DNA of 64,000 bases. Source: Candidatus Woesebacteria bacterium GW2011_GWB1_39_10 (GTDB taxonomy: Bacteria > Patescibacteriota > Microgenomatia > UBA8517). The notes beneath the pieces are model-generated. The model had not been told where the DNA came from and did not search any database. It saw nothing but the letters and a program-made list of their open reading frames with translations. The translations under genes and the position numbers were made by a program. This document shows positions 1,942 to 56,964 of the stretch, piece by piece. Position 1 is the stretch's first letter. Every line of letters begins with the position of its first letter. The DNA is taken from NCBI GenBank assembly GCA_000993205.1, contig LBVU01000003.1, forward strand, positions 85,820 to 149,819. Direction: 5' to 3'.

Positions 1942-3402
1942 GTGAAAAAGACAATCGCAAAATTTATCCTCAATCATCCTTTGACTATTCTCTCTCTAAT
2001 ATATTTTCTTTCAAGAATAATCAACTTAACCAAACTCCCTATTTTTAATGATGAAGCAATTTATCTGGACTGGGGTTGGAAATCTCTTCACACCAGTGCG
2101 GGTTTGTTTTATTCATTGTATGATGCCAAACCCCCTCTCCTTATTTGGATTTTCGGAATATTTGAAAGCGTTTTTAATTCACCACTTCTGGCGGGCAGGA
2201 TCGTATCCGTTATATTTGGATTTTTGACATTAGTCGGAATATTTAAAATCGCAAAAAACTTAGGAGACGAAAGGTTCGCGCGTTTATCTTCAATCATTTA
2301 TATTATTGTTCCTCTTTTCGCTTTTTTTGACCGCCAGGCTTTGATGGAATCAGCGGTCGGGGCCACTGGCATTTGGTCCTTTTATTTTTTACTAAAGGTT
2401 CTTGAAACCAAAAAAACTCAATACGCGATTTACCTGGGTTTGATTCAGGGGTTGGGCATCTTTACAAAACTTTCGGCACTTGTTTTTTTGATTCCGATCG
2501 GTTTAATTTTGATTTACAGAAAACGTTTTAAAGAAACTGTTGTATCTATCATAACCGGTCTTATTGTTCTCGCCCCACTCTTTTTTCAAAAAATATTTTG
2601 GACCTCATTTAACGCCAATAATCGTTTTATTTTGTCTGTTCCGGAAATTTTGGTCTTCCCACTTTCTTTGTGGATAAAAAATTTTTCAACCTCAATCGAT
2701 GTATCATTTTTCCACTTAACCCCCCTGATTTTTATATTAGGAATTTACGGACTATATTTATCTGTAAGAGATAAAATTGGGATTCTTCCCATATTTTTCT
2801 TGACAGGGTGCCTCCTTGTCATACTTCTCGGCAGATCTATCGGTCCAAGATATTTGACGGCTTTTCTTGTATTAACACCAATCTTCGCGTCACGGGCAAT
2901 TTTTAGTTTTAAAAAAACACCTGCAATTTTAATCGGAGGCACCTCAACTTTCACGGCAATCGCTGTAACTTCACTTTTAATTTTTTCTCCTATCGTCTAC
3001 TTCAATTCTATGGACAAAGTGACAACATTTTCGCAAAAATCTGAATATATAACAGGCTGGACATCGGGATATGGGATTTTGGAGACGGTAGATTATCTAA
3101 ACCAAAAAGCGAAGGATGAAAAAATAATCGCCGGTTTTAGAATTGATGCGGGTAATCCCGAAAGTGCGATGTTTGTATATTTTAACAACTCGGCTAGAGT
3201 AAAACCAATATATATAGATTCAAAGAATCTTGACAAATCCATCTTAAATCTAAATTGTGTGAAAAGCCCATTTCCTATATATTTCGTGGCCCGGGCTGGA
3301 AATTTAGCGGGGCTTGATAAACTCTTTATCGAAGAAAAGAGGTTTTATAAACCGGAGGCAAAAGACTTCGTTTCTATCCACAGGCTCAAGAAGTGTGATT
3401 AA
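1942..3402 (+). CDS. GT-C membrane glycosyltransferase, PMT/ArnT (GT39/GT83)-like
   Basis: 486 aa, GTG start. Multi-TM with a first-loop 'FNDEAIYLDWG' DE motif typical of dolichyl/undecaprenyl-phosphate sugar transferases. Confidence 0.7.
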   Translation: MKKTIAKFILNHPLTILSLIYFLSRIINLTKLPIFNDEAIYLDWGWKSLHTSAGLFYSLYDAKPPLLIWIFGIFESVFNSPLLAGRIVSVIFGFLTLVGIFKIAKNLGDERFARLSSIIYIIVPLFAFFDRQALMESAVGATGIWSFYFLLKVLETKKTQYAIYLGLIQGLGIFTKLSALVFLIPIGLILIYRKRFKETVVSIITGLIVLAPLFFQKIFWTSFNANNRFILSVPEILVFPLSLWIKNFSTSIDVSFFHLTPLIFILGIYGLYLSVRDKIGILPIFFLTGCLLVILLGRSIGPRYLTAFLVLTPIFASRAIFSFKKTPAILIGGTSTFTAIAVTSLLIFSPIVYFNSMDKVTTFSQKSEYITGWTSGYGILETVDYLNQKAKDEKIIAGFRIDAGNPESAMFVYFNNSARVKPIYIDSKNLDKSILNLNCVKSPFPIYFVARAGNLAGLDKLFIEEKRFYKPEAKDFVSIHRLKKCD

Positions 3403-5051
3403 ACTTCTACAACAACAGGAAGAATCATCGGGCGACGGCCTGTTTTTTGGGCAAAATATCTTTCCAGAAAGTCTATTGCAGTATTTCTGGCTAACGTTGA
3501 ATTAACCGATTTTTTCTTCTGAAGTTCGCGCGCCAGGTCGCGGGAAGCGTCGTCCAAAACTCTGCCGTATTTCTGTTCAAAAACAAAGCCACGGCTTATT
3601 ATTTCGGGCGGAGAAAGAAGGGTCCCGCGGTTTCTGTCAAAGTGGATAATGGTTATAACAATTCCTTCCTTGGAAAGTATATGCCGGTCCCTTAGCACAG
3701 TATTTCCCACGTCTCCAACCCCAAGTCCGTCAATTAAAACCTCTTTGACAGGAACTCTTCCCGCAATTCTTGCGTTCTGATTGTTATACTCCACAATTTG
3801 CCCGGGGGTAAGCTCCAGAACCTCTCTTTCCGACGCGCCCATCGATTGCGCGATAAGCCCGTATGCCCTCATGTGACGAATAGTTCCACCGATTGGGATG
3901 TAATATTTAGGTTTAACTAGCGCAAAAAGCATTTCAATATCTTTAATGCTTCCGTGTCCTGAGACATGAAGATCCTCCTGCATGTCGTAGTAATGTACAT
4001 CAATATCACTTTCGATAAATTTATCTACCAAAAAATTAATTCCACCGGCGCTTCCGGGTGGCCCCGGGTCTGCCGAAAAAATAACCATATCCCCTTTGTT
4101 TATCGTCAAAAAATCATGTTCACCTGTTGCCAACCGGTAAAGGGCGCTCCCGGACTGTCCGTAACAGCCGGATATAATATAGAGAACTTTATTCGGAGGA
4201 AGCTTAGCAGCCTGTTTTGAACGGATGACAACATCTTTGGGATAAAATATGTAACCTAATTGTCTTGCAATCTCTGCTTTCCTTTCAATTGATCGACCAA
4301 TCAACACTACTTTTCTTCCCAATTTTGCGGCGGCATTAATTGTCTGCTGCATCCTTGAAATGTTTGATGATATTGTTGTCAAATAAATTTTGCCCGTCGC
4401 CTCTCTTCCTGCTTGTTCAATTCTTCCCTCAATCGCCTTTTCGCTCTCGGTGTAACCCGGGGATGTTGCCCCCAACGAATCCGATGCTAAAGCAAGCGCT
4501 CCACCAGAAGCCAATGTTGCCACTTTTGCTACGTCGAATGGACGCCCGTCTACCGGGGTCCAGTCAAATTTATAATCTGGAACATGGAAAAGTTTCCCTT
4601 CCGGGGAATCAATGCAAAAACCAACCCCGTCTGGAACTGAATGGGCAACCCTAAACGGGGTTACTTTAAATACTCCGAGAGTCAGAACGTCATGATCCGG
4701 ATCAAAAACCTTAACATTTTTGGTATCCATCCCGGAATCTATTAATTTTTCTTGAATAAAACCGGCAACTAATTTGGTCGCGTAAACTGGGGTGTTGACC
4801 TCTTTAAGAAGAAATGGAATTGCCCCCAGGTGATCTTCGTGTCCATGAGAAATAAGAACCCCGCGAAGTTTATGTTTATTTTGAACTACGTAAGTAAAAT
4901 CGGGAATAACAAGATCCACACCAAACATTTCGCTATCGGGAAAGCCCACGCCGCAATCAACAACAATCATGTCGTTTCCGTATTCGTAAACGTAAAGATT
5001 TTCCGTTACGCCGGTAGTTCCCGAGAGGGCAATGAATTTGAGGGAGTTCAT
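3399..5051 (-). CDS. rnj: Ribonuclease J (metallo-beta-lactamase / beta-CASP)
   Basis: 550 aa. 'VVDCGVGFP...ISHGHEDHLGAIPFLL' HxHxDH motif, beta-CASP region and a C-terminal domain. Confidence 0.9.
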   Translation of the reverse strand: MNSLKFIALSGTTGVTENLYVYEYGNDMIVVDCGVGFPDSEMFGVDLVIPDFTYVVQNKHKLRGVLISHGHEDHLGAIPFLLKEVNTPVYATKLVAGFIQEKLIDSGMDTKNVKVFDPDHDVLTLGVFKVTPFRVAHSVPDGVGFCIDSPEGKLFHVPDYKFDWTPVDGRPFDVAKVATLASGGALALASDSLGATSPGYTESEKAIEGRIEQAGREATGKIYLTTISSNISRMQQTINAAAKLGRKVVLIGRSIERKAEIARQLGYIFYPKDVVIRSKQAAKLPPNKVLYIISGCYGQSGSALYRLATGEHDFLTINKGDMVIFSADPGPPGSAGGINFLVDKFIESDIDVHYYDMQEDLHVSGHGSIKDIEMLFALVKPKYYIPIGGTIRHMRAYGLIAQSMGASEREVLELTPGQIVEYNNQNARIAGRVPVKEVLIDGLGVGDVGNTVLRDRHILSKEGIVITIIHFDRNRGTLLSPPEIISRGFVFEQKYGRVLDDASRDLARELQKKKSVNSTLARNTAIDFLERYFAQKTGRRPMILPVVVEV

Positions 5052-5053
5052 TA

Positions 5054-5641
5054 TTACACTTTCATTTTACTCAATATTTCTCTCAATTGCACGAAATCGA
5101 CCTTTTCTGCTTCCAGTACTTTCCCATTCCTTAGAGATGCGGCAGGGTGATACATTGGGATAACTGTTAACTGTTGATTGTTTACTGTTAAATTGAACAC
5201 TTTTCCGTGGACTCCAGAGATGAAAACATCTGACAAAAATTTTGCCATAGAAAACCTACCCAATGTAATTACTATTTTTGGTTCGATAATTTCAATTATT
5301 TTGTCCAGATATTTCCCGTATGCCGATATTTCCTCAGGGAGCGGATCGCGGTTTTCAGGGGGTCTATGGTGAACGATATTTGTTATAAACACCTTTTTCC
5401 TTTCGAGGCCGGCAAGAAGTAAGAGCTTGTCTAAAAGTTTTCCCGCCTGCCCCACAAATGGCAGACCTTGTTCATCTTCGTTTCTCCCTGGCCCCTCCCC
5501 GATACAGAGAATTGAGGCCTCGGTATTTCCCGATCCGAAAACCAATTTGTTTGCTCCTTTTTTGAGAGGAAGCGAGTCGTCTTTCTCCATCTCATCTTTC
5601 AACTCGTGTAATTTCTTATATTTTGATTTCATATATTGCAT
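5054..5641 (-). CDS. Uracil-DNA glycosylase, family 4
   Basis: 'CIGEGPGRNEDEQGLPFVGQAGKLL' and 'MYHPAA' motifs of family-4 UDG. Confidence 0.85.
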   Translation of the reverse strand: MQYMKSKYKKLHELKDEMEKDDSLPLKKGANKLVFGSGNTEASILCIGEGPGRNEDEQGLPFVGQAGKLLDKLLLLAGLERKKVFITNIVHHRPPENRDPLPEEISAYGKYLDKIIEIIEPKIVITLGRFSMAKFLSDVFISGVHGKVFNLTVNNQQLTVIPMYHPAASLRNGKVLEAEKVDFVQLREILSKMKV

Positions 5642-5643
5642 TG

Positions 5644-5698
5644 ATTGACAGGGTCGGACCTTGTCAAACCGCTATCTATCCTGAAAAGGTCCGACCCT
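5644..5698. promoter_or_regulatory. Nested inverted repeats in the MPE–UDG intergenic spacer
   Basis: 'TTGACAGGGTCGGACCTTGTCAA' near-palindrome. An 11-bp arm AGGGTCGGACC (5650-5660) is repeated as its complement GGTCCGACCCT (5688-5698). Function unknown. Confidence 0.35.
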
Positions 5699-5699
5699 T

Positions 5700-6173
5700 T
5701 CAGTCCTCATTAAAAAATTCTATCTCATTTGTCACTGTCTCATACACTGCAAAATTTATACCGTTAATTATGGCTCCAGGGCGCACAAATTTAGTCCAAT
5801 TTATCGTTTTTTCCTCTTTTGAGTGGTAATGCCCGCTGAAGACGATACTAAGAGACTCGATACTAGATATTAAGTTTTGGGACATTCTGTGAACTATTCC
5901 GATTTCAAGTCCGTCGACGTTTAGTTTAAGAAGATGAGGATCAAACTTTTCGGCATTAAATTTTAAATATTCTTCAATTCCATCCTCTACATCCGCATTT
6001 CCCAAAACAGAATAAAGGGGAATTCCATATGATAAAACAGTTTCAATCGACGCGACGTTGTCCCAGTCACCGCAGTGGATAACGGCACCAATCTTGGCTT
6101 TTTTGCCAATCTCCATTACGGCTTTAAGGTTGGCAATATGGCCGTGAGAATCGGAAATAATTAAAATCTTCAC
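5700..6173 (-). CDS. Metallophosphoesterase, YfcE/MJ0936 family
   Basis: 'KILIISDSHGH', 'HCGDWD', 'GNAD' and 'GHYH' motifs. Confidence 0.8.
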   Translation of the reverse strand: MKILIISDSHGHIANLKAVMEIGKKAKIGAVIHCGDWDNVASIETVLSYGIPLYSVLGNADVEDGIEEYLKFNAEKFDPHLLKLNVDGLEIGIVHRMSQNLISSIESLSIVFSGHYHSKEEKTINWTKFVRPGAIINGINFAVYETVTNEIEFFNED

Positions 6174-6262
6174 CTGTAAATTATACCAAACTTGTGTTTT
6201 TGTGTCCTATAGGTTAGAATCCTCCATATAAATAGGCTACAAATCCCAGAAAGGAGTTAGTT

Positions 6263-6682
6263 ATGCCCGACCTATTTTTGATTGCATCCCAAGAGGACGC
6301 AGAAGTTTTGAAAAAGCACATTAAAACCGTCATTGGCCCAGCTCTCCGCCAGGCCACAGCAAACTCTTTCGAGGACCTCGAAAAAGACCCTAAAAAGGTG
6401 GCCTTATATATTTTGGCCCACCAAGGCGGAGACAACATTCCGCCCCTTCAAATCATTGGCATCGCGAGCTGGAATGCTGAAAGGGAAAGGGAGTTAGAAG
6501 GTTGGCGAAACAGGCTCGGAAGGGAGTGGGGGCTCATTCTGTCCGATAAAAAAATTGGCAAAGAGTTAACAGACAGATTCCCTTTTGACAAGGTCGAGAT
6601 CTGGCCGCTCCTGCCGAAAGGTTCATTCGCAACCGCTGCATTTGCCGCAAAGATGTTCTTGGCAGAGCAGGAATGGCGCTAG
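6263..6682 (+). CDS. Hypothetical protein (GC-rich, likely horizontally acquired)
   Basis: 139 aa ORF with strong RBS 'AAAGGAGTTAGTT-ATG'. GC content visibly higher than flanks. No recognisable domain. Confidence 0.55.
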   Translation: MPDLFLIASQEDAEVLKKHIKTVIGPALRQATANSFEDLEKDPKKVALYILAHQGGDNIPPLQIIGIASWNAERERELEGWRNRLGREWGLILSDKKIGKELTDRFPFDKVEIWPLLPKGSFATAAFAAKMFLAEQEWR

Positions 6683-6708
6683 ACAAATAGAAAACAAAAG
6701 GAGTTCCA

Positions 6709-7023
6709 ATGCAACACTTAGTTAAATTTTTTATGCCTGAGGCCATTGCCAAAGCTATCAATGCTCATTCTGAGCTTGTAACCTCGACTTTCGCCAGAAA
6801 GTTAAAAGTCCCAGAGAGCAGTGTAACCTGCATCGCCATGGCCATACCTGGAGGCAATCAGCGTATCATCGAGATCGCATTCCCCGTTATTCATACCACC
6901 GAAATGGAACGTGCGGCCCAGGATGCCTGGATCAACGCCGCCAGTATAATCACCGGCGATGTTGCAGAGCTTGTGTTCGACCGCGAATCGGATATCTGGT
7001 TTACTATTGGCTCTAAGGCTTGA
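6709..7023 (+). CDS. Hypothetical protein (GC-rich, likely horizontally acquired)
   Basis: 104 aa ORF with RBS 'AAAGGAGTTCCA-ATG', followed by an intrinsic terminator. No recognisable domain. Confidence 0.55.
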   Translation: MQHLVKFFMPEAIAKAINAHSELVTSTFARKLKVPESSVTCIAMAIPGGNQRIIEIAFPVIHTTEMERAAQDAWINAASIITGDVAELVFDRESDIWFTIGSKA

Positions 7024-7034
7024 TCGTTCGCAAG

Positions 7035-7076
7035 AAGGCGCTTTTCTTTTCAAAAAAGACTAGCGCCTTTTCTTTT
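7035..7076 (+). terminator. Rho-independent terminator after the GC-rich ORF pair
   Basis: Stem AAGGCGCT(7035-7042)/AGCGCCTT(7062-7069) followed by TTTCTTTTG. Confidence 0.7.
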
Positions 7077-7080
7077 GCAG

Positions 7081-7409
7081 TCATCCTGAATTCATTTCAG
7101 GATCTTCCTTGTCCTGAACTTGTTTCAGGATCTGCGTGAACAAATCCTTGAACTCCGGATTTTTTGTTTTAATCAAATCAATCTTCCATTCTCTATGCAA
7201 TTCTTGAGTTGTTTTTCTCTTTTGATCGCTTCCAATATTTCTTCAAAAACCTCGTAATAAAGAAGTTTGTAAGTCTTATATTTAGAGCTAAACATACTAC
7301 CAAACCCACTTCTATGCCGCGCAATTCTATTAATTAAATTAGAAGTCACCCCAATATACAAAACCGGTTTTTGATTTCCCAAAATGTAAACGAATCCTTG
7401 TTTAGACAT
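7081..7409 (-). pseudogene. GIY-YIG nuclease family protein, frameshifted near 7197
   Basis: 'FVYILGNQKPVLYIGVTSNLINRIARH' GIY-YIG motif. Frame 0 stops at 7173 ('...REKQLKNCIENGRLI*'). The +2 frame continues as the family-typical 'HREWKIDLIKTKNPEFKDL...' to 7081. A single missing G (TGG to TG) would restore '...QLKNWHREWKIDLI...'. Confidence 0.7.
7083..7131. repeat. Two tandem hairpins with YCCTGAA-N5-TTCAGGR stems
   Basis: ATCCTGAA-ttcat-TTCAGGAT (7083-7103) and TCCTGAA-cttgt-TTCAGGA (7112-7130). Related to the hairpins at 7420-7472 and to the infB/dnaK leader elements. Confidence 0.6.
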
Positions 7410-7419
7410 AATGACAAAG

Positions 7420-7472
7420 ATACTGAAACGAGTTCAGTATGACACACGCAGAAGCTGAACTGAATTCAGCTT
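7420..7472. repeat. Two hairpins, ATACTGAA-N5-TTCAGTAT and AAGCTGAA-N5-TTCAGCTT, between the Lon-like and GIY-YIG genes
   Basis: Perfect 8-bp stems at 7420-7440 and 7452-7472. Same CTGAA/TTCAG core as 7083-7131. Confidence 0.6.
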
Positions 7473-7486
7473 GACTCGGTGACTCA

Positions 7487-8533
7487 TCACTGTGGTATAA
7501 ATGTCTTTACGTTTTCGGAAGTTACCCGAACTTCTTTAGCTTTTCCTTCAACAATCATCCTGGCCACCTTACGCACAACTCCGTCGATATTCCGCTCAAG
7601 TGTACGGATTCCGGCGTCATAGCCCAAGGGTCTAACAATATTAGGCCAAACTTCGTCGGAAATAACAAGTGAGCCTTCAGGCAGCCCCGATGCTTTCATT
7701 GCGGCCGGCAAAATATATCTTTGAGCGATAACAGTCTTTTCCTGGTCGGAATAACTGGGCATGCTAATGGGCTCAAGCCTATCCATAACGGCAGTTGCGA
7801 TGCTTGTGGTGTTATTGGCTGTTGCAATAAACAGAGTCTCGGAAAGGTCGAAGGGGAAGTCGATATAATGGTCCACATAGGCATAATTCTGTTTGGGGTC
7901 CAAAAGCTCGACCAAAACTCCCATTATGCTGCTTCTGCCCTGTTCTGTAACCCTGTCGATTTCGTCCAAAAGTATAACCGGATTTCTGCACTGGGTATCC
8001 CTCAAGGCCTTAATAACTTTCCCAGGTTCTGCCTCAGGGTGCATTCGCGATTGACCGCGAAGGTCTAAAGGGTCTCCCATACCTCCAAAGGGAATACGGG
8101 CAATAGGCCTGCCCAGCGCTTCTGCAATCGAATAAGCAATCGTTGTTTTACCGGTACCAACAAGCCCCACAAAACATAGAATCGGGGCACGATACAAATC
8201 TTTCATTTCCCCTTTTTCGGTTTTTAGTTTCATAACACTCATGTACTCCAAAACACGGGTTTTAATATCATCAAGGCCATAGTGGTGAGCTTCAAGAATT
8301 TTCTTAGCATTTTCCAGGTCCAGAGTATCCTGGATTCTTTTGTTCCAGGGAAGGATTGTTATCCAATCAATATATTTTTCCATGCTGTCAAACTCGGGTA
8401 AAAATGAGGGGGAATTAGTAAGCTTGGCCAGTTGATTAAGACGAACCAGAACCATCTCGCGGAGTTTATCCGGTAAGCTGGCATTTTTAATTCTTTCTAT
8501 TAAAACAGTAATTTCCTGGGCAGCAGGTTCCAT
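7487..8533 (-). CDS. Lon-like AAA+ ATPase module, with no Lon N-domain and no S16 protease domain
   Basis: 348 aa. 'YIDWITILPWNKR...HYGLDDIKTRVLEYMSV...ILCFVGLVGTGKTT...VILLDEIDR...LLDPKQNYAYVDHY' aligns to the Lon ATPase core and alpha-helical subdomain. The ORF ends before any Ser-Lys protease domain. No SD upstream. Confidence 0.75.
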   Translation of the reverse strand: MEPAAQEITVLIERIKNASLPDKLREMVLVRLNQLAKLTNSPSFLPEFDSMEKYIDWITILPWNKRIQDTLDLENAKKILEAHHYGLDDIKTRVLEYMSVMKLKTEKGEMKDLYRAPILCFVGLVGTGKTTIAYSIAEALGRPIARIPFGGMGDPLDLRGQSRMHPEAEPGKVIKALRDTQCRNPVILLDEIDRVTEQGRSSIMGVLVELLDPKQNYAYVDHYIDFPFDLSETLFIATANNTTSIATAVMDRLEPISMPSYSDQEKTVIAQRYILPAAMKASGLPEGSLVISDEVWPNIVRPLGYDAGIRTLERNIDGVVRKVARMIVEGKAKEVRVTSENVKTFIPQ

Positions 8534-8559
8534 ACATTCATGATATCACGAAGTCTTTT

Positions 8560-9429
8560 TTAAATCCCAATTTTCCAAACACCATTCTCCCTAAATGCAG
8601 GTATTGCCTGTCTTTTAGCGGAGTTGAAAACCCCGGACCCTTCTAATCTATTTATTTTTACATATTCAGTCAGTGTTATTATTTTCAGACCTTTCAGATA
8701 GGTTATTCTTTTATTTAAAGACTCTATCAGGGCTTTGCTGATTATTTTAGTCATTAACTTTATGCTTTTGGTATCGTTAAACTCGTTAAAGGCTAAATAA
8801 TACTCAAGCTTTTCTTTATTTTTAACAATGATGTTTGGAAAACCAAGACTTAATAGTTGGAAGTTCAGTAAAACTCGACCGATTCTTCCGTTTCCGTCAT
8901 TAAAAGGGTGGATTGATTCAAACCCGAGGTGAAAACCAGAAATCTTATCCAAAAAATATTTTGTATTGTCGCTTGAATAACTTAACAACAAATCAGAAAT
9001 TAAACCTTCAATTTTTTCTGGTGGAGCGCCAATATGCGTCCCTACGCGAACATTTTCCGTCCCATTCCTAAATCTTCCCGAAATTTTGTCATTAATATTA
9101 TCTAAGAGCATTTTATGGAGAAACAAAATTACATGAATATCTAAATCAGTTCTTTCTTTATTTCTCAAATATTCAAAAATCCGGGCCAAATTTTTAGCCT
9201 CAAAAACCTCCCTTAAACTAACATCACGGGGAACCTCCATTTCCATGAGGATTTTTTCTGTCTCTTTCAAGGTAAGAGTCGAGTTTTCAATAGCATTGCT
9301 GTTATAGACACTCTCGGCGATTTCAGCCTCGTCTATTAAATTAAGCAAAGAGGATTTTCCTACCCTTCGTTGATCAAATTCCTTTTTGAGCTCATCGATT
9401 TTGGCTTTTGTAGAAGTTCCAACTGTCAT
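8560..9429 (-). CDS. Fic/Doc family protein (Fido AMP-transferase) with an N-terminal inhibitory motif
   Basis: Canonical Fic motif 'HPFNDGNGRIGR'. N-terminal 'SNAIEN' matches the (S/T)xxxE(G/N) auto-inhibitory helix motif (class II arrangement). Confidence 0.85.
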   Translation of the reverse strand: MTVGTSTKAKIDELKKEFDQRRVGKSSLLNLIDEAEIAESVYNSNAIENSTLTLKETEKILMEMEVPRDVSLREVFEAKNLARIFEYLRNKERTDLDIHVILFLHKMLLDNINDKISGRFRNGTENVRVGTHIGAPPEKIEGLISDLLLSYSSDNTKYFLDKISGFHLGFESIHPFNDGNGRIGRVLLNFQLLSLGFPNIIVKNKEKLEYYLAFNEFNDTKSIKLMTKIISKALIESLNKRITYLKGLKIITLTEYVKINRLEGSGVFNSAKRQAIPAFRENGVWKIGI

Positions 9430-9447
9430 ATAGTCATATTATACAAT

Positions 9448-9516
9448 ATTCACGCCTTTTTGTCAAATATGCGTGAATTTATGTCAAAAGTCGCCCAAAT
9501 TCACGCCAAATTCACC
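9448..9516. promoter_or_regulatory. TTCACGC repeat cluster (putative operator) in the Fic/DinD divergent promoter region
   Basis: ATTCACGCC (9448-9456), inverted GCGTGAAT (9471-9478), ATTCACGCC (9499-9507), AATTCACC (9509-9516). The spacer carries a TGTCAAA x2 direct repeat. Confidence 0.5.
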
Positions 9517-9534
9517 TTCCGAAGTCTTTCCTTG

Positions 9535-9563
9535 CCCTTCCGTAGCCTTGGCGAAGGAGGGTC
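9535..9563 (+). repeat. GC-rich ~29-bp repeat family, copy A (intergenic)
   Basis: 'CCCTTCCGTAGCCTTGGCGAAGGAGGGTC'. See copies at 29001, 29481, 49411 and 49945. Confidence 0.7.
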
Positions 9564-9695
9564 TCTAGCTTTTGTTATCAGTTCCTTGCAGGGTTTCTGC
9601 TTACAAGGAGTCATACTACTTGAAGGCGTTCCTTCCAAGGTGCACAAAAAAACCATATCTTGACTTCGGGTAATGTTTGGTTCTAAAGTGTATGT

Positions 9696-10523
9696 ATGGC
9701 CAAAACTTCTAAGATTGCATTATTTGAGGGGAATAAAATACGCAGGCATTGGGATAACAATAAAGAATTGTGGTATTTTTCTGTTGTCGACGTTGTCCAA
9801 ACACTAACAGATCAACCAGATTTTACCAGGGCCCGTAAATATTGGAATAAATTAGCAGAAAGACTTCGAAAAGAAGGAAGCGAGTCGGTGACAAAATGTC
9901 ACCAACTGAAAATGAAATCCTCTGATGGCAAATACTATCTTACTGATGTGGCGGACACTGAAACAATGTTACGTTTAATTCAGTCAATCCCCTCCCCAAA
10001 AGCCGAGCCTTTCAAATTATGGCTGGCCAGCGTAGGTTATGAACGATTGGAAGAAACTGCCGATCCGGAATTGGCTATTAATCGCGCTTTAAAAACATAT
10101 TTACAAAAAGGCTACAGCAGAGAATGGATCAACCAGCGTTTAAAAAGTATTGAAATTCGAAAAGAATTAACTGATGAATGGGAAAGCCGTGGGGTAAAAG
10201 AAGGGTTGGAATTTGCAATTTTAACCAATGAAATTACTGAAGCCTGGGCCGGGTTAACTACTAAACAATACAAAAATCTCAAAGGATTAAAGAAAGAGAA
10301 CTTAAGAGACAATATGACTAACTTGGAATTAGTTTTAAACATGTTGGCAGAAACAGCCACAACTGAAATTTCTCAAAAAAGAAAACCCAAAAACTTTCCT
10401 GAAAACAAAAAGGTTGCCAAAGAAGGAGGAACTGTGGCGGGGAACGCAAGACGCGAAATAGAATCAAAAACAGGTAAAAAAGTGATTACCGGAAAGAATG
10501 CTAAGAAATTGAAACTTATATGA
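9696..10523 (+). CDS. DNA-damage-inducible protein D (DinD)-like / Bro-N domain protein
   Basis: 'IALFEGNKIRRHWDNNKELWYFSVVDVVQTLTD...IQSIPSPKAEPFKLWLASVGYERLEE' matches the DinD/Bro-N antirepressor-type family from memory. Confidence 0.75.
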   Translation: MAKTSKIALFEGNKIRRHWDNNKELWYFSVVDVVQTLTDQPDFTRARKYWNKLAERLRKEGSESVTKCHQLKMKSSDGKYYLTDVADTETMLRLIQSIPSPKAEPFKLWLASVGYERLEETADPELAINRALKTYLQKGYSREWINQRLKSIEIRKELTDEWESRGVKEGLEFAILTNEITEAWAGLTTKQYKNLKGLKKENLRDNMTNLELVLNMLAETATTEISQKRKPKNFPENKKVAKEGGTVAGNARREIESKTGKKVITGKNAKKLKLI

Positions 10524-10552
10524 TCGTTGTGTTCACAACATCACTATCGATG

Positions 10553-12988
10553 TTACCTTCCAAAGTCTTTATTGCTATCATCTCCCATTAGTCTTGAAGT
10601 TGGGAAATGGGGACCGCCTGCTTCTCCCGGTCTGTCGCTATTTCCAAAATCACGTCTTGGTCCACCAAAACCCGTTCTTGGACCTCTCGAAAATCCACCA
10701 CTTCTTCCTCCACTAAAACCTCCTCTTGAGCCTCCTCCAAAACCACCCCGTCCTTCACCGAATCCACCTCGTGAACCTCCGCCGAACCCACCGCGTCCGC
10801 CGCCCCTTGGTCTTTCCTCTCTCGGTTTATCTTTTGCCGGGTCCATGTTCATAGAGAGATTAATTCTTCCCATTTCGTCAATTTTGACTACACGAACCTT
10901 TACTTTATCGCCGATTTTAACAACATCGTTGGCGTCGGCTACAAATTCCTCTCGGCCCATGTCGCTTACATGTACCATTCCGTCTTTTCCGGGAAGAATA
11001 TTCACGAATGCTCCAAAAGGCATAATTCTAACAACTTCTCCGTCATAAATTTCTCCTGCTTGGACTTCTTTTGCAAAACCTTCGACGTAGGAAATTGCTG
11101 ACTGCATCTTTTCAGGATCAACTCCGCTTACCGCAACGCTTCCGTCATCGCTAACATCCACCGTTACTCCAAAGTCTGCCATAACCTTCTTAATATTCTT
11201 CCCTCCGGGGCCAATAAACTCACCAATCTTATCGACCGGAATCTTAACAACTTGAATCTTGGGCGCATATTGCGAAACTGTCTTTCTGGGTTCGGCTAGA
11301 GTATCAACAATCGCTTTCATCACCTGTCCTCTGGCATCTTTTGATTGTTCTAATGCCTTTTCTAAAATTTCGGGTGTTAAATTTAAGGTTTTAACATCAA
11401 GCTGAAGCGCTGTAATCCCCTTTTCCGTTCCCGCGACCTTAAAGTCCATGTCACCGTTATAATCCTCGATTCCCATGATGTCGCTTAGGACCGCAAATTC
11501 TTTCTCACTACTTCCGAATATAAGTCCCATCGCAATTCCGGCAACCGGAGCTTTTATGGGAACTCCTGCGTCCATCAACGAAAGAGTAGACCCAACAACT
11601 GAAGCCATAGAAGTCGAGCCGTTTGAACTCATTACTTCGCTGACTACGCGGATAGCATATGGAAAGTCATCTTGAGATGGGATAACCGGCTCAAGAGCCC
11701 GCTCGGCCAAAGCTCCGTGTCCAATTTCACGCCTGCCGGGATTTCCAAATCTCCCAACCTCACCGCTGGCGTAAGGAGGCATGGAATATTGGTGCATATA
11801 GCGCTTTTCTGCTTCACCCTCGGCAGATTCCAAGAGTTGACCCATTGATTGGGCGCCAAGTGTGGCGACAGAAAGAACATGGGTTTGACCCCTCTTGAAC
11901 AATGCCGATCCATGGACTCGTGGTAAATATCCGACTTCTCCGGATAATTTTCTTACCTCCGTCAGTTTTCGTCCGTCGGGGCGAATTCCCTTTTTAAGAA
12001 TTTGCTCACGAATGAAATCTTTCTTCATGTGATCAACAATTTCCGGTACCCATTTTGCGTCTGTCTCAGTTACATTTTCCGTAACGGCGTCGATTAAATC
12101 AGCCAGTTCAGTAGATCTTCCATTTTCAACCTGAACCAAACTTGCTACAACGCCGGCAATTTTGTCTCCAACTAATTTTTTGACTTGATTTTCAAGTTCA
12201 GCTGATGGCTTTTCTTCTTTGTATGTTTCGCGGGTTCTGCCAACCTCTTTAGAAAGATCTTCTATTAATTTAAGAACTGCTTTGGATTCTTTGAATGCAA
12301 GTTCAACGCCTTTTACAATTTGTGCCTCAGTTACTTCATTTGCGCCGGCCTCGACCATCAAAACCGCCTCTTTTGTTGAAGAAACGGTAAGATTCATTAA
12401 AGAAGCCTTCATCTCAGATGCTATCGGATTAATTTTGTATTTATCTTCGATCAAACCAACTGTTAGGGGAGCCACTGGGCCTTTCCAGGGAAGAGTCGAG
12501 ACGTGAATTGCAGCGCTTGCGGCAATTGCGCCCAAAGTCTTTGGATCATTTTCCATGTCAACGGAAAGAACGGTAACTGTAACCTGAACTTCCATTTTGT
12601 AGGATTTGGGGAAAAGCGGACGGATTGAACGATCGATTAGGCGGGCGGAAAGAATCTCATCATCGGTTGGTCTACCTTCTTTTTTAACCCATTTGCTTCC
12701 TTTAATTCGTCCTCCTGCATAAAGCCTTTCAAGATAGTCGACGGAAAGAGGAAAATAATCCATTTCCATTTTCATGGGCGCCGAGGCGACGGTTGCAAGA
12801 ACAACAGTATCACCGTGTCTGGCTATAACTGCTCCCCCTGCCTGTTCAGCAAGTTCTCCTGTTGAAAGGGTAAGGGTTCTGCCTCCAAGTTCTATACTTT
12901 TTTCGATCTTTTTCATTATTTTGAGGTAAGTTTGAAGATTGAGTTCTGAGGTCTCACTACTATCGTGAGACACCATTTCCAATCTCAA
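10553..12988 (-). CDS. pnp: Polyribonucleotide nucleotidyltransferase (PNPase) with a C-terminal RGG/RG-rich tail
   Basis: Two RNase PH domains, KH and S1 ('GEIYDGEVVRIMPFGAFV'), then a ~95-aa 'RGGGRGGFGGGSRGGFGEGRGGFGGGSRGGF...' tail. The true start is probably M25 at 12916 ('MKKIEKSIELGGRTLTLSTGELA'). Confidence 0.9.
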   Translation of the reverse strand: MRLEMVSHDSSETSELNLQTYLKIMKKIEKSIELGGRTLTLSTGELAEQAGGAVIARHGDTVVLATVASAPMKMEMDYFPLSVDYLERLYAGGRIKGSKWVKKEGRPTDDEILSARLIDRSIRPLFPKSYKMEVQVTVTVLSVDMENDPKTLGAIAASAAIHVSTLPWKGPVAPLTVGLIEDKYKINPIASEMKASLMNLTVSSTKEAVLMVEAGANEVTEAQIVKGVELAFKESKAVLKLIEDLSKEVGRTRETYKEEKPSAELENQVKKLVGDKIAGVVASLVQVENGRSTELADLIDAVTENVTETDAKWVPEIVDHMKKDFIREQILKKGIRPDGRKLTEVRKLSGEVGYLPRVHGSALFKRGQTHVLSVATLGAQSMGQLLESAEGEAEKRYMHQYSMPPYASGEVGRFGNPGRREIGHGALAERALEPVIPSQDDFPYAIRVVSEVMSSNGSTSMASVVGSTLSLMDAGVPIKAPVAGIAMGLIFGSSEKEFAVLSDIMGIEDYNGDMDFKVAGTEKGITALQLDVKTLNLTPEILEKALEQSKDARGQVMKAIVDTLAEPRKTVSQYAPKIQVVKIPVDKIGEFIGPGGKNIKKVMADFGVTVDVSDDGSVAVSGVDPEKMQSAISYVEGFAKEVQAGEIYDGEVVRIMPFGAFVNILPGKDGMVHVSDMGREEFVADANDVVKIGDKVKVRVVKIDEMGRINLSMNMDPAKDKPREERPRGGGRGGFGGGSRGGFGEGRGGFGGGSRGGFSGGRSGGFSRGPRTGFGGPRRDFGNSDRPGEAGGPHFPTSRLMGDDSNKDFGR

Positions 12989-13002
12989 ACTTACTTATTA
13001 TA

Positions 13003-13272
13003 TTACTTCTCTATCTTTAAGTCACTGGCCAATTTCGCAAACCTCTCTTCATCGCGTCTTTTTAGATAGCTTAAAAGCCTTCGTCTTTTGGCTACCATTG
13101 AAAGGAGTCCGCGCCTACTGTGAACATCTTTTTTGTGTTCTTTTAGATGGGTGACAAGTTTGTCTATCTGATTAGAAAGAAGTGCAATTTGAACTTCAGG
13201 AGAACCTGTGTCACCTTTCTCGCGGGAAAACTTCTTAATTATGTCCTGTTTTGTATCTTTGGCTAGTGCCAT
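13003..13272 (-). CDS. rpsO: 30S ribosomal protein S15
   Basis: 89 aa '...SPEVQIALLSNQIDKLVTHLKEHKKDVHSRRGLLSMVAKRRRLLSYL'. Classic rpsO-pnp arrangement. Confidence 0.95.
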   Translation of the reverse strand: MALAKDTKQDIIKKFSREKGDTGSPEVQIALLSNQIDKLVTHLKEHKKDVHSRRGLLSMVAKRRRLLSYLKRRDEERFAKLASDLKIEK

Positions 13273-19419: not shown

Positions 19420-21762
19420 ATGTCAAACATCTGCAATTTCATCAATCATAAAAATAATCACATACAATACTTGCAAACTATTATATGTAATGGCAAAATG
19501 AAGTACCCTGTCATGCAAGAACAAAATCCATATTTAATCAAAATTCCGGAAGTTCCGTATCAACCGCCTTCAAAGTCTCCATCTTTTCCTAAAAATAATA
19601 TTTCAAAAACGATTTTCGGCTTTCTTGGAATTATGATGCTTACAATCGGTGCCGGACTTGGTGTCCTTCTTGTCCAAAATCAACAAATATTTAGAGGAAA
19701 AGCAGCCGAAAATACCACAGCGCAAAAAATAGCCGAAATAGCTGAAAATCTTGGTCAGAATCAACCTTCAAATACCTCTGTATACACATCCAGTGACCTG
19801 GGTTATCAAATTACTTTCGATAAGAATTACTGGACACCCACGACCGATTTAAACCAATCTAATCTACAAACAATAAGCCTATCTCTTAACAATCAGGCTG
19901 GAAACGCTCAAATAACTTTTGCCTCTTTTGATCTGACAAAGAAACTTAAATCGGCAAAGGGAGTCGGCAATTCACTTGACTTACTCGCCCAAACTTATGC
20001 AACAGATACAAATTCCACTTCCAAAGAAAAAGTAAGAATGAACGGACGAGACTATTATAAATTGTCATATGACCTCAACTTCCTGAACCAAAGAAGTCAA
20101 TACTTTAAATATTTGACCATAAACGGAAATAACTACTATGTCATAACCGCCAAATACTCTACGTTTGGAAACGGGCAAGCATTTGCCAATCAATTCATCG
20201 ATTCGCTTTCGTTCTTACCTCAAAATCCATCGGTAAAGGCGGCAACAACCAATTCAATTCCCGCCACGGTCCTTGACGAATCAAAGATCGTGGAATTAAC
20301 TAAACCGTCTGTTTTTGAGATTGCGCATATCTACTGCAACAATATTGATATCCCCAACCTATCCGGGACCAAATATCTTAAAGCAAGTTACACTTTCTGC
20401 AATGGCGCTTTGGGATCCGGTTTTGCAATCAACAAAGACGGTTTTATCGCGACGAATGGTCACGTCGCCAAAAGTTACCCCGAGGAAGCAATGGTGCAGG
20501 CATTTTTGTATAAGAGCACCAGTATCAAACCGTTTGCAATTGACCTAATTCAAGAAATTGCCCTAATTCAAACAGGTCAGGAAATAAGCACGGATCAAGC
20601 CACAATTTTTCTTGCCCAAGCTGAAAATGATCCGAATGTGTTTCAGATACTCATGAATCTGATTTATAAAATGATGCAACAAAACCTGCTTGTTCTTAAG
20701 GAAAACCAGAACAGATATTTTGTGAAATTAAGTAATGATCCTCTCGTTATAGATACCAAAAAATCCGGACTCGATATTTTAAATTCAATCACATCGTCCG
20801 ACACGGTTAAGGAAGCAACTTACGTGGCATCAAATTATCCAAATGCTTACACCACAGATGCGATACTTAATAATAAGCCCCCAACTGGCTCCGATGTTGC
20901 CATTCTTAAGATTATAAACCCTGGTAAGCTAGTTTTTCCTTCAGTCAACCTCGGTACTTCCGATGGCTTAAAAGAGGGTTCTGATGTAATAGTAATCGGT
21001 TATCCGGGTTTGGTGTCGGGAAGCGCCTCGGCAGATTCTCTTATAAATCAAAAATCTTCTGCGACTGCCACTGTAACCAGGGGAATTATTTCCGCTATCA
21101 AAAATGATCAGGGCGGACTAAAGTTGATCCAAGTTGACGCCTCGATTGACCATGGGAATAGCGGTGGCCCGGCTTTCGATACAAATGGGAATGTAATTGG
21201 AATTGCAACTTACGGTATGGGGAGCACTAGCGGTAATTATAATTTTTTAAGGGATATAAACGATCTTAAAAAATTAGCGAGCGACAACTCAGTTTCAATT
21301 GGCACTTCTGCTACTTATGACCAGTGGGCACAGGGCTTGTCTTACTTTTGGATCGAACACTACAGACAAGCTGAAATTCCATTTGCCCAAGTACAAAAAG
21401 ACTATCCAATCCATCCAACAGTTATCGGTTATGTTTCGGATTCAAACACGGCAATTCAAAAAGGGCAGGACAAAAGTGGACTGTTGTTTCTTCTAACTCA
21501 CGATCTTAAAACACAGCTTATTTTTGCCGGAATAATCTTTGCTGTCATTGGCGGTGGAGTTGGAATAATTATTTTTATACATAGAAAAAAGACTCCAGGA
21601 ACGGGGATTACCCCTACTCAACAAACAGTGCAAACAACCCAAAGTATCCAACCCACCCCTCTGCCTTTACCACAACAACCGACTTTTGTTGGCCAAAACA
21701 CCACACCTGTAAGTCCTCCGAGAGTTTTTTCCACAAACGGGCCACTTGCTAACAATATCTAA
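19420..21762 (+). CDS. Membrane-anchored trypsin-like serine protease (S1/HtrA-like domain plus N-terminal unknown domain and Pro/Thr/Gln-rich tail)
   Basis: Catalytic triad context 'IATNGHVA', 'SDVAILKI', 'DHGNSGGPAF'. N- and C-terminal TM segments. Start may be the downstream ATG at 19498. Confidence 0.75.
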   Translation: MSNICNFINHKNNHIQYLQTIICNGKMKYPVMQEQNPYLIKIPEVPYQPPSKSPSFPKNNISKTIFGFLGIMMLTIGAGLGVLLVQNQQIFRGKAAENTTAQKIAEIAENLGQNQPSNTSVYTSSDLGYQITFDKNYWTPTTDLNQSNLQTISLSLNNQAGNAQITFASFDLTKKLKSAKGVGNSLDLLAQTYATDTNSTSKEKVRMNGRDYYKLSYDLNFLNQRSQYFKYLTINGNNYYVITAKYSTFGNGQAFANQFIDSLSFLPQNPSVKAATTNSIPATVLDESKIVELTKPSVFEIAHIYCNNIDIPNLSGTKYLKASYTFCNGALGSGFAINKDGFIATNGHVAKSYPEEAMVQAFLYKSTSIKPFAIDLIQEIALIQTGQEISTDQATIFLAQAENDPNVFQILMNLIYKMMQQNLLVLKENQNRYFVKLSNDPLVIDTKKSGLDILNSITSSDTVKEATYVASNYPNAYTTDAILNNKPPTGSDVAILKIINPGKLVFPSVNLGTSDGLKEGSDVIVIGYPGLVSGSASADSLINQKSSATATVTRGIISAIKNDQGGLKLIQVDASIDHGNSGGPAFDTNGNVIGIATYGMGSTSGNYNFLRDINDLKKLASDNSVSIGTSATYDQWAQGLSYFWIEHYRQAEIPFAQVQKDYPIHPTVIGYVSDSNTAIQKGQDKSGLLFLLTHDLKTQLIFAGIIFAVIGGGVGIIIFIHRKKTPGTGITPTQQTVQTTQSIQPTPLPLPQQPTFVGQNTTPVSPPRVFSTNGPLANNI

Positions 21763-26177: not shown

Positions 26178-28094
26178 CTATTCTACCACTTCACCCTCTT
26201 CAACTTTGGCGTCATCTTTCTTTCCATCCTCAGACTTCTTCCCTCCATTTTCACCCTCAGTCTTCTGGCTTCCGTCGTCTGTCTTCGCACCCTGATCCTT
26301 GTACATTGCTTCTCCAATTTTAGAAAGTTCTTCTGACAATTCTTTGGTCGCGGTTTCGATATCTTCCTTTGAAGAATCTTCTTTTCCTGCAACTTCTTTT
26401 ACTTTTTTGATTTTTTCTTCAACTTTTTCTTTTACGTCGGCCGGAACTTTGTCCCCGGCATCTTTAATAGATTTTTCAGCTGTGGCCACCATCGAATCAG
26501 CGGTATTTTTGGATTTGATAGTTTCAGCCTTCTTTTCATCTTCTTCTTTGTGTTTTTCCGCCTCTTCTTGCATGCGTTTAATTTCATCGTCGGATAAACC
26601 AACCGCGCCGGTAATTTTAATATTCTGGGTTTTCCCTGTCGCTTTATCTTTGGCTGTAACGGTTAGGATACCTGAGGCATCCATATCAAAAGTAACCTCA
26701 ACCTGCGGTACTCCACGTGGGGCCGGTGGAATTCCGTCCAATACAAAAGTCCCAAGAGTTTTGTTGTCTGCACTCATCGGCCTCTCGCCTTGAGTAACAA
26801 CTATTTGGACCTGCGTTTGGTTATCACTGGCTGTGGAAAATGTTTCGGTTTTACTTGTTGGAACTGTAGTATTTCTTGGAATCATGGGGGTGGCAATATT
26901 GCCCATTGTTTCAATTGCCAATGTTAACGGAGTAACGTCCAAAAGAAGAATGTCTTTAACCTCGCCTCCCAAAACTCCACCTTGAATTGCAGCTCCAATG
27001 GCCACGACCTCATCTGGATTAACTGATTGATTTAGATCTTTACCAAAAAAGTTTTTGACTGTTTCTACAACTTTAGGCATTCTGGTCATTCCTCCAACCA
27101 TAATTACCTCGTCTATATCGTGTGCATCAAGTTTGGCATCTTTCAAACAGGATTCAACCGGTTTAATTGTTTTTTGAATAAGGTCATCAACCAAGCTTTC
27201 CAATTTAGCGCGGGTTAATTTCATTGTTAAATGAAGCGGCGCGCCGTTATTCTGGGTTATATAAGGCTGATTAATTTCAACTTCATTCGCCGCGGAAAGC
27301 TCAATTTTTGCTTTTTCGGCGGCATCGCGAACTCTCTGAAGAGCTTGTGAGTCGGCTTTAAGGTCCACCGAATTTTCCTTTTTGAATTCAGAAACTATGT
27401 GGTCAACAATCACCGCATCAAAATCGTCCCCACCAAGATGGGTATCTCCATTTGTTGCTTTAACCTCAAAAACCCCGTCCCCAAGTTCCAAAACTGAAAT
27501 ATCAAAAGTTCCGCCTCCAAGGTCATAAACAGCAATTTTGTGAGCATTTTTTTTCTCCAGGCCGTAAGCAAGCGCAGCCGCTGTAGGTTCATTGATAATT
27601 CGCTCAACTTTTAGTCCCGCAATTTCACCGGCCTGTTTGGTGGCCTGACGTTGGGCATCGTCAAAATAGGCTGGAACTGTGATGACTGCTTTATCAACTT
27701 TTTCACCAAGATATTTTTCTGCATCAGCCTTAAGCTTCATCAAAATCCTGGCCGAAATTTCCTGAGGTGTGTAAGTTTTTCCTTCGACTTCAACGTCGGC
27801 CATGCCGCTTTTTCCCTCAATAATTTTATAAGGAACCATTTCTATAGTTCTTTTAACTTCTTTATCTTCAAATCTCCTACCCATAAGGCGCTTAACCGAA
27901 TAGATAGTATTTTTACCATTGAGGATCATCTGTCTCTTGGCAACGTCCCCAACTAAATTTTTAACCACCTCAACAATGGAGGGTGTAGTATTCCTCCCTG
28001 TATCGCCCGCGGAAATAACTTTTGGCCTGCCGCCTTCCATCACCGCAAGACAAGAGTTTGTCGTTCCTAAATCAATTCCGATTATTTTTGACAT
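26178..28094 (-). CDS. dnaK: Chaperone DnaK (Hsp70)
   Basis: '[15 protein letters not shown]', 'DLGGGTFD' and others. 638 aa. Confidence 0.95.
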
Positions 28095-28175: not shown

Positions 28176-28655
28176 TCAGGATAATTGTTTGCTAACAATC
28201 ACCTTCGCATGTCTTACTACATTACCATCTTTAAACTTCCAACCCGTAACAAGAACCTCTGAGATCATATTATCCATCTTTCCGTCAATTACTTCAATAA
28301 CTTCTTGACTGTTTTCGTCAAATTCACTTCCAATTTTAGGATTTATTTCTTCCAAACCTTCTTCAATAAAAACTTTTTTAAATTCCAAAATCGATATCGC
28401 AAGTCCGGAATCTTTTAGATGCTCCTGAGCTTTTTCTAACATGTCCATTATTGGCAGCAGTCTTGAGATTATGCTTAAAGACGAAAATTTTGTCCAAGAA
28501 ATTTTCTCTTCCTCAGTCCTTCGCTTTAAATTATCATAATCCGCCAAAGTTCTTGCCAGTTGGCTTTTCAGCTGTTCCATCTCCAAACTATTCGCTACCA
28601 GGGCTTTGACTGGCCAAGCTTTGCTTATTCGCTTTTCGCTTTTCGCTTTTTTCAT
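28176..28655 (-). CDS. grpE: Nucleotide exchange factor GrpE
   Basis: 159 aa, positioned between hrcA and dnaK, with a GrpE C-terminal pattern. Confidence 0.85.
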   Translation of the reverse strand: MKKAKSEKRISKAWPVKALVANSLEMEQLKSQLARTLADYDNLKRRTEEEKISWTKFSSLSIISRLLPIMDMLEKAQEHLKDSGLAISILEFKKVFIEEGLEEINPKIGSEFDENSQEVIEVIDGKMDNMISEVLVTGWKFKDGNVVRHAKVIVSKQLS

Positions 28656-29413: not shown

Positions 29414-29440
29414 TTAGCAGTATCTTACCTCGAGTGCTAA
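29414..29440. promoter_or_regulatory. CIRCE-like operator TTAGCAGTA-N9-GAGTGCTAA abutting the hrcA start
   Basis: Right half is a perfect GAGTGCTAA; left half matches 7/9. The N9 spacer (GAGGTAAGA on the mRNA strand) carries the only SD-like sequence for hrcA. Confidence 0.75.
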
Positions 29441-56873: not shown

Positions 56874-56935
56874 TAGCTTCAAATACCCTTCACGAATGAT
56901 ATTTCCAATCTAGATTGTAGTGCTCACATTATTAG

Positions 56936-56964
56936 TTGACATATTGTTATTGTTGATTAATAAT
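56936..56964 (+). promoter_or_regulatory. Sigma70-like promoter (TTGACA-N17-AATAAT) giving a near-leaderless LAGLIDADG transcript
   Basis: TTGACA at 56936-56941 and AATAAT at 56959-56964. The ATG at 56971 is 7 nt downstream of the -10 element. Confidence 0.45.

Follow-up and report, generated by a model that had tools for sequence, protein, structure and literature searches.

The DNA analysed here, called the window below, is a stretch of 64,000 nucleotides (nt) of contig LBVU01000003.1 (positions 85,820–149,819, forward strand) from Candidatus Woesebacteria bacterium GW2011_GWB1_39_10. On its minus strand, at 7487–8533, it encodes a stand-alone Lon-type AAA+ ATPase, which we label LonA′. An earlier note on this DNA had described a 348-amino-acid (aa) Lon ATPase core without the substrate-binding N-domain and without the protease domain, and Pfam, TIGR00763, comparison with PDB sequences and an AlphaFold2 (AF2) model agree on that architecture. 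The gene and the parts of its product are as follows.

7487–8533, minus strand: complete LonA′ gene, 348 aa, with an ATG start and a TGA stop (7487–7489, included)
8216–8533, minus strand: helical N-terminal region, residues 1–106, corresponding to the bundle of three helices that LonA has ahead of its AAA+ module (beginning at about residue 245 in E. coli Lon), from the AF2 model and alignment to Lon structures
7754–8200, minus strand: AAA+ large alpha/beta subdomain, residues ~112–260, from Pfam AAA (119–255) and the AF2 model
7490–7750, minus strand: Lon-type alpha-helical lid, residues 262–348, with sensor-2 R310 (7604–7606), W296 and P302-L-G304-Y-D306, from Pfam Lon_lid and alignment

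A Pfam scan assigned residues 119–255 to AAA (PF00004) and residues 280–334 to Lon_lid (PF22667), and found no other Lon-specific domain in the protein, neither the N-terminal domain nor Lon_C. The NCBIfam equivalog model for endopeptidase La, TIGR00763 ('lon'), matched with E = 6.9e-95 at model positions 256–573 of 795, which places the ends of the reading frame where the earlier note had put them, beginning where the N-domain would end and stopping where the S16 protease domain would begin. Because the alignment takes in only those positions, the score (319 bits) lies below the curated family threshold (608); PRK10787 aligned over model positions 244–579 of 784 and gave 230 bits against a cut-off of 891. 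In phmmer comparisons with PDB sequences, LonA′ matched Bacillus subtilis Lon (3m6a; E = 5.8e-77), human LONP1 (E about 1e-75) and residues 245–578 of E. coli Lon (6u5z). The AF2 model of the monomer (mean pLDDT 89.6, pTM 0.81) has N-terminal helices at residues 3–17, 22–37, 44–60, 73–83 and 88–106, superposes on the AAA+ modules of LonA and LONP1 with TM scores of 0.8–0.87 (Foldseek) and is coextensive with the crystallised AAA+ fragment of E. coli Lon, 6n2i (TMq 0.83, TMt 0.86). In LonA, a three-helix bundle directly precedes the AAA+ module (PMC8244335); by alignment, the start of LonA′ is this bundle and its end is the AAA+/protease junction.

These boundaries are not artefacts of decoding or assembly. 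The gene ends in TGA TGA, and an ortholog with 85% identity ends at the same codon with TAA, which rules out a recoded stop codon. Assemblies from JGI, ENA and Logan encode the identical protein on 22 contigs, and all four loci displayed share one gene layout. The recurrence of the protein in independent assemblies excludes the assembly error that the earlier note had allowed for.

The missing domains were sought by tblastn with the N-terminal and protease pieces of five canonical Lons. No coding sequence for either was found in the whole 64-kb window (best E 0.84, none near LonA′) or within ±8 kb of LonA′ in 20 family loci (263 kb in total), and the same queries detected both Lon parts in 12 of 12 canonical lon loci. 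A protease domain continuing downstream in another frame, which the earlier note had not seen, was thus not found in the window or the family loci either. The window contains no second Lon-like ATPase; its large open reading frames (ORFs) encode an HtrA-like protease, PMT, AddA/UvrD-type helicases, DnaK and MurJ. Among the 67 canonical matches listed from a scan of species genomes of the Genome Taxonomy Database (GTDB) for family contexts, no canonical Lon carries a Patescibacteria label, which is weak evidence. The label of the candidate phyla radiation (CPR) is also absent among the named nearest canonical Lons, of which the two named are Clostridiales and Deinococcus, most of those clusters being nameless.

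Relatives were gathered by a HMMER scan of 1.84 billion cluster representatives and the scan of GTDB species genomes. The best 120 clusters (90% identity), with source names of Microgenomates or Woesebacteria, are 84–100% identical to LonA′, and 115 of them are exactly 348 aa long. Judged from its coding sequence, LonA′ is under strong purifying selection: Nei–Gojobori dN/dS is 0.035–0.067 relative to two orthologs with 85–87% protein identity, with synonymous sites near saturation. More distant ATPase-only relatives, at 40–60% identity, carry the names Levybacteria, Shapirobacteria, Dojkabacteria, Microgenomates, Woesebacteria or 'Patescibacteria group'; all end at the same lid position, and the N-terminus of some is extended by low-complexity sequence. 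A neighbour-joining tree built on the shared region places 29 ATPase-only sequences in a single clade, from which all 71 canonical LonA representatives are absent, and divergence inside this clade is as large as among those 71. On this phylogenetic evidence, the ATPase-only family is old and stable rather than a decaying gene. Four further proteins that look ATPase-only but are long at the N-terminus (P0189, P0197, P0205 and P0213) have canonical pore loops, fall outside the clade and are probably fragments of ordinary Lons. Several third-party metagenome-assembled genomes titled 'uncultured Gammaproteobacteria' or 'Pseudomonadales' (L016–L018, L020, L021, L024 and L025) have the CPR-type gene and synteny. 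Given this CPR-type gene order, we treat the labels with caution; they are probably taxonomic mislabels.

We compared the motifs of 33 short sequences, four of which were later found to be the canonical-Lon fragments, with those of 71 canonical Lons. The functional sites of LonA′ are:

8144–8167, minus strand: Walker A GLVGTGKT, residues 123–130; K129 and T130 invariant in 33/33 short and 71/71 canonical sequences
8021–8059, minus strand: pore-loop 1 RGQSRMHPEAEPG, residues 159–171, in place of canonical RGHRRTY[VI]GA[ML]PG
7961–7978, minus strand: Walker B VILLDE, residues 186–191; D190 and E191 invariant
7919–7954, minus strand: pore-loop 2 region RVTEQGRSSIMG, residues 194–205; the canonical aromatic (F/Y/W) is G/A/S, and GDP is replaced (P to I)
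7778–7816, minus strand: sensor-1 N240 (7814–7816) to arginine finger R252 (7778–7780), both invariant

The ATP site is intact. Seven residues (K129, T130, D190, E191, N240, R252 and R310) are invariant in both groups, including all 33 short sequences, and 45 positions that are at least 90% conserved are identical in the ATPase-only and canonical groups. LonA′ has every sequence feature tested for a competent AAA+ ATPase (Walker A and B, sensor-1 Asn, arginine finger and sensor-2 Arg) and is predicted to be equipped for ATP binding and hydrolysis between subunits. Around this site the family has its own signature. Walker A reads G-L-x where LonA has G-P-P (GLxG versus GPPG), and the lid carries the clade-specific changes W296 and P302-L-G304-Y-D306. 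The canonical pore-loop 1, G-H-R-R-T-Y-[VI]-G-A-[ML]-P-G with Tyr in 70 of 71 sequences, is replaced in the clade by G-Q-S-R-x-x-P-[DE]-A-E-P-G, with H, F, N, S, R or Q at the Tyr position; in pore-loop 2, the canonical F/Y/W gives way to A/G/S and the invariant Pro of GDP to Ile. LonA′ itself has His165 and Gly199 at the two aromatic positions. In the Lon of Meiothermus taiwanensis (MtaLonA), degradation depends on both Tyr397 of pore-loop 1 and Trp431 of pore-loop 2, the residues that touch the polypeptide during translocation (PMC8503904). With both of these substrate grips gone, the description of LonA′ as an unfoldase in the earlier note is doubtful. LonA′ carries all the marks of the clade: the lid end, the P-[DE]-A-E-P-G pore-loop 1, G-L-x-G-x-G-K-T, W296, P302/G304 and its grouping in the tree.

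The gene also has its own predicted expression signals. No GGAG, GAGG or AGGA occurs within 18 nt upstream of the LonA′ ATG, which bears out the earlier observation that a Shine–Dalgarno (SD) sequence is absent. An extended −10 promoter element lies just ahead of the start codon:

8540–8548, minus strand: extended −10 element TGATATCAT, matching five of six hexamer positions, 6 nt upstream of the LonA′ ATG; predicted leaderless transcript

This arrangement is ordinary for the window. Of its 57 non-overlapping ORFs that are 100 aa or longer, only 9 have an SD (the same three motifs), and 12 have a −10-like hexamer exactly 6 nt before the start codon, compared with 0–3 genes at most other spacings; a smaller shoulder (6 genes) appears at 8 nt. 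A sharp −10 peak just before start codons is a signature of leaderless transcription. Across the family, an SD was found in 0 of 20 loci, and in about half of the loci a −10 hexamer precedes the ATG by exactly 6 nt, with TGn in six cases. LonA′ is probably transcribed from its own promoter as a leaderless mRNA; read-through from the upstream Fic gene is possible, yet not needed. Because SDs are few in the window and the −10 element sits at leaderless spacing, the missing SD is normal here and uninformative; it points neither to decay nor to coupling with Fic, and the weight that the earlier note gave it is not supported.

LonA′ lies in a housekeeping neighbourhood that is interrupted on both sides by variable DNA:

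10553–13272, minus strand: conserved upstream backbone, with rpsO (13003–13272) and pnp, encoding PNPase (10553–12988)
8557–10560: lineage-specific insertion of ~2 kb between pnp and LonA′, containing Fic and Bro-N; GC content 36.9%, compared with 45% in flanking genes
9696–10523, plus strand: Bro-N protein; PADLOC PDC-S13, E = 4e-135, full length
8560–9429, minus strand: Fic; PADLOC PDC-S04 (E = 6e-36) and SoFic (8e-27); own promoter
6174–7486: second variable segment of ~1.3 kb between LonA′ and the phosphoesterase gene, absent in 85–89% orthologs
7079–7476: GIY-YIG cassette, ~10 nt past the LonA′ stop
6263–6682 and 6709–7023, plus strand: hypothetical ORFs in the second variable segment, with strong AAAGGAG SDs, unlike most host genes
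3399–6173, minus strand: conserved downstream backbone, with YfcE-like metallophosphoesterase (5700–6173), family-4-type uracil-DNA glycosylase (UDG; 5054–5641) and RNase J (3399–5051)

The backbone order in 21 other loci is nusA-infB-(unknown)-rpsO-pnp-[LonA′]-(YfcE-like phosphoesterase)-(UDG)-RNase J-ftsK-HTH_25. In nine loci pnp is directly upstream of LonA′, and in 14 of the 21 RNase J follows within three genes; UDG or RNase J, as the next gene, often abuts or overlaps the LonA′ stop. In most relatives LonA′ thus appears to head the UDG/RNase J genes or to be translationally coupled to them. The gene sits outside the pnp/RNase J setting in two Patescibacteria species, where groES-groEL is divergent from it (L023 5742–9017; L024 5878–9029), and in one further species an ftsA-like gene follows it. 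Heat-shock (CIRCE/HrcA) control of LonA′ was considered and rejected: the sole CIRCE in the window, a CIRCE-like inverted repeat TTAGCAGTATCTTACCTCGAGTGCTAA at 29414–29440, is directly upstream of an operon that ends in dnaK (26178–28094, Pfam HSP70), and we take the 253-aa (28652–29413) and 159-aa (28176–28655) ORFs before dnaK to be hrcA and grpE. The PNPase has a C-terminal tail of ~100 aa made of RGG/GGF repeats (GGRGGFGGGSRGGFGEGRGGF...), which produces a spurious 173-aa ORF on the opposite strand (10527–11048).

The Fic protein bears the HPFNDGNGRIGR motif and an N-terminal SNAIEN inhibitory-helix-like motif, and its gene has a perfect promoter (TTGACA-17-TATAAT) at 9466–9438. Nucleotide homology to orthologous loci ends at the end of pnp (~10560–10590) and resumes at 8556, immediately past the Fic stop and 23 nt ahead of the LonA′ start codon. 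In the 89% ortholog no Fic gene was called and pnp and LonA′ are 40 nt apart; in the 97%-identical ortholog no Fic gene was called and a different, 1200-aa ORF occupies the same spot (L096 1309–4911), which together with two small ORFs has no Pfam or PADLOC match. A six-frame search found the Fic motif in none of 19 other Patescibacteria LonA′ loci. In these comparisons the pnp–LonA′ intergenic site behaves as a cargo hot spot, and Fic is best described as having come to lie beside LonA′ through a strain-specific insertion at this variable site, with no functional pairing of the two genes. The link to a co-transcribed Fic that the earlier note proposed is therefore not supported, and the recurrence of ATPase-only ORFs beside Fic genes, which it had named as a check, was not seen in the loci compared: Fic is in a low-GC insertion with its own promoter, the link is accidental, and neither the other loci nor the two close orthologs have Fic there. 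The matches to PDC-S04, SoFic and PDC-S13 make Fic and Bro-N candidate single-gene phage-defence genes (from the PADLOC naming convention, we take PDC-S04 and SoFic to be single-gene entries). LonA′ has no specific PADLOC match, only P-loop-level ones, and its membership of a defence system was rejected on that ground.

Other features of the window were recorded in passing. In the second variable segment, a stand-alone GIY-YIG ORF of 78 aa (7173–7409, minus strand) is flanked by two pairs of CTGAA-N5-TTCAG hairpins, which form 27-nt imperfect terminal inverted repeats around it (7079–7105 and 7450–7476); the hairpin sequence occurs seven times in the window (0.6 expected), four of them at this cassette, which looks like a small mobile cassette. 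The HtrA-type protein (780 aa; 19420–21762, plus strand) has its trypsin-like peptidase domain only at residues 477–617, preceded by ~470 residues without a Pfam match. A 357-aa ORF with LAGLIDADG endonuclease domains (56920–57993) overlaps the start of a methionyl-tRNA synthetase ORF (57990–59420), whose best-scoring Pfam stretch covers residues 139–362, with a second stretch besides; the pair could represent a homing-endonuclease or intein arrangement, or else metG may be split.

Among known systems, LonA′ is closest to LonA proteases (TIGR00763, MEROPS S16), with ~40% identity over all 348 aa and E values of 1e-66 to 6e-77 against solved LonA and LONP1 structures. It shares with LonA, and with the 6n2i fragment, the order of three-helix bundle, AAA+ alpha/beta subdomain and Lon lid, as well as the ATP-site residues; 6n2i, however, is a laboratory fragment, whereas LonA′ is a natural conserved protein. 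It differs from LonA in having no N-terminal substrate-binding domain, long coiled coil or S16 protease domain with its Ser-Lys dyad, in the change of TY[VI]GAMPG to xxP[DE]AEPG, in the loss of the pore-loop 2 aromatic and GDP, in GLxG for GPPG and in the new lid motifs. As it lacks the protease domain, the N-domain and the gripping residues and scores under the family threshold, LonA′ is not filed as a Lon protease. LonC (for example, that of M. taiwanensis) has been described as a Lon-lineage protein that has lost one of two coupled activities and for which a chaperone-type role is proposed (PMC3391209, PMC13069640). LonC is the mirror image of LonA′: it keeps the protease and has a dead ATPase, whereas LonA′ has a fully equipped ATPase and no protease. 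With no protease domain, intact Walker motifs and an AF2 model that is continuous, without an inserted segment, LonA′ falls outside both LonB and LonC. Mitochondrial LONP1 is reported to have a chaperone-like activity that requires ATPase but not protease activity (PMC8368198), a precedent for a Lon AAA+ ring that handles clients by ATP hydrolysis in the absence of proteolysis; LONP1 retains its N and protease domains and canonical pore loops, so this likeness is functional only. ClpX, ClpB and MoxR-type proteins are, like LonA′, AAA+ rings encoded apart from any peptidase, but they belong to other AAA+ subfamilies (by Pfam/NCBIfam ranking only). ClpX and ClpB retain aromatic pore-loop residues.

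Multi-module Lons (P0121–P0127 and others) also have non-standard Lon AAA+ architectures and high scores against LonA′, but lie outside the ATPase-only group. They make up 32 of the best 150 representatives (P0121–P0127 and 25 more), with lengths of 900–1700 aa and 2–4 tandem Lon AAA+ modules. The four sequences that were read (P0121–P0123 and P0125) combine a hydrophobic N-terminus with a single Lon protease domain at the C-terminus; one multi-module Lon is named Candidatus Dependentiae (MFC1854773.1), and pore loops are degenerate in some modules.

We consider it reasonably probable that LonA′ is an intact and expressed core gene of Microgenomates-type Patescibacteria that encodes a Lon-derived AAA+ ATPase, which has lost the N-domain and the S16 domain and serves as an ATP-driven, non-proteolytic remodeller. 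The lineage would have given up the N-terminal substrate-binding domain and the protease domain for good and kept the ATPase motor. LonA′ would assemble into an ATP-hydrolysing ring, because its conserved trans arginine finger makes sense only in an oligomer. The intact inter-subunit ATPase site, combined with a rewritten, acidic and largely non-aromatic pore, suggests a ring that hydrolyses ATP without threading: LonA-style polypeptide threading, and with it processive hand-over-hand unfolding, would be lost. Such a ring may serve specific clients as a chaperone or remodeller, and basic proteins are possible clients. Fic and Bro-N would be cargo of a strain-specific insertion with no functional tie to LonA′.

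Several observations count against this reading. Isolated Lon AAA+ modules are not known to assemble into stable, active hexamers when the protease domain is missing. Five of the 29 clade members are aromatic at the pore-loop 1 Tyr position (four Phe, one Tyr) and four others have Phe one residue upstream, so that some gripping ability is possible. The pnp/RNase J synteny may reflect the inheritance of gene order and not a functional tie, and no CIRCE operator was found near LonA′ in any locus, including both groESL-adjacent ones. The DNA inspected is ~10% of the genome, and a protease partner could be encoded elsewhere.

This last point bears on a split Lon, in which the LonA′ ring would dock on a separately encoded S16 protein or another peptidase, as ClpX does with ClpP. 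The intact ATPase machinery and the end of LonA′ exactly at the AAA+/protease boundary would fit such an arrangement. However, split genes usually remain adjacent, and no Lon_C or N-domain was found within ±8 kb in the 20 loci or in the 64-kb window by searches whose positive controls worked; moreover, the pore-loop aromatics for feeding a protease are gone and the lid surface has family-specific changes (W296, P302 and G304). We regard a split Lon as unlikely, and give about the same weight to a role for LonA′ as an RNA or ribosome factor, working with PNPase and/or RNase J on ribonucleoproteins or basic ribosomal proteins in the place that DEAD-box helicases hold in degradosomes. The gene is at the end of a nusA-infB-rpsO-pnp translation/RNA cluster, the position between pnp and RNase J is kept across 40–60% divergence, often with UDG or RNase J abutting or overlapping, and an acidic pore loop might suit basic clients. 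Yet gene order alone is weak evidence, three species have LonA′ elsewhere, beside groESL or ftsA-like genes, the predicted promoter would make LonA′ a transcription unit of its own, and an acidic pore argues against threading nucleic acid directly.

The two remaining explanations fare far worse. A toxin or defence module of Fic and the AAA+ ATPase, co-transcribed from the Fic promoter, is very unlikely: although the two genes share a strand, are separated by a 26-nt gap with no terminator between them and follow a perfect promoter, with Fic matching PDC-S04 and SoFic, the Fic motif is in 0 of 19 other loci, the 97% ortholog has a different ORF there and the 89% ortholog nothing. Orthologous homology resumes right past the Fic stop, and the insertion deviates in GC content; the PADLOC matches of LonA′ are P-loop-level only, and those of Fic are presumably single-gene entries. 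Least probable of all, to the point of being nearly negligible, is a doubly truncated lon pseudogene, to which two missing LonA domains out of three and the absent SD might point. The length is the same in 115 of 120 close clusters, dN/dS is 0.035–0.067, the catalytic residues are invariant, a deep clade ends uniformly at one position, a −10 box is conserved at leaderless spacing and no remnants of the lost domains are detectable. Of the two alternatives offered by the earlier note, the functional ATPase-only protein is thus supported, and the conservation of the gene refutes the relic.

LonA′ is a real, conserved derivative of Lon that has apparently gone undescribed so far. According to a recent review, both domains are present in every Lon (PMC9569914), and in our full-text search of the literature we found neither a naturally protease-less Lon nor a treatment of Lon in Microgenomates or of leaderless transcription in Patescibacteria. 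It is possible, though less probable than our main reading, that Microgenomates-type Patescibacteria have no Lon protease at all, their sole Lon-lineage protein being a non-threading, acidic-pore remodeller near PNPase and RNase J whose clients might be, for example, basic proteins of the ribosome or nucleoid; LonA′ would then be the first case in nature of a Lon that abandoned proteolysis altogether and yet stayed a conserved core gene. In databases these proteins carry the name 'ATP-dependent Lon protease' or 'AAA family ATPase'; the former misstates the activity and would inflate the inference of Lon proteolysis in these organisms. On our favoured reading, a large radiation of minimal-genome bacteria retains only the motor of Lon, strongly selected and at a fixed housekeeping position. 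It would be a natural experiment on the capabilities of a Lon AAA+ ring that degrades nothing, and CPR bacteria may have in it a factor of proteostasis or RNA metabolism that is still unstudied.

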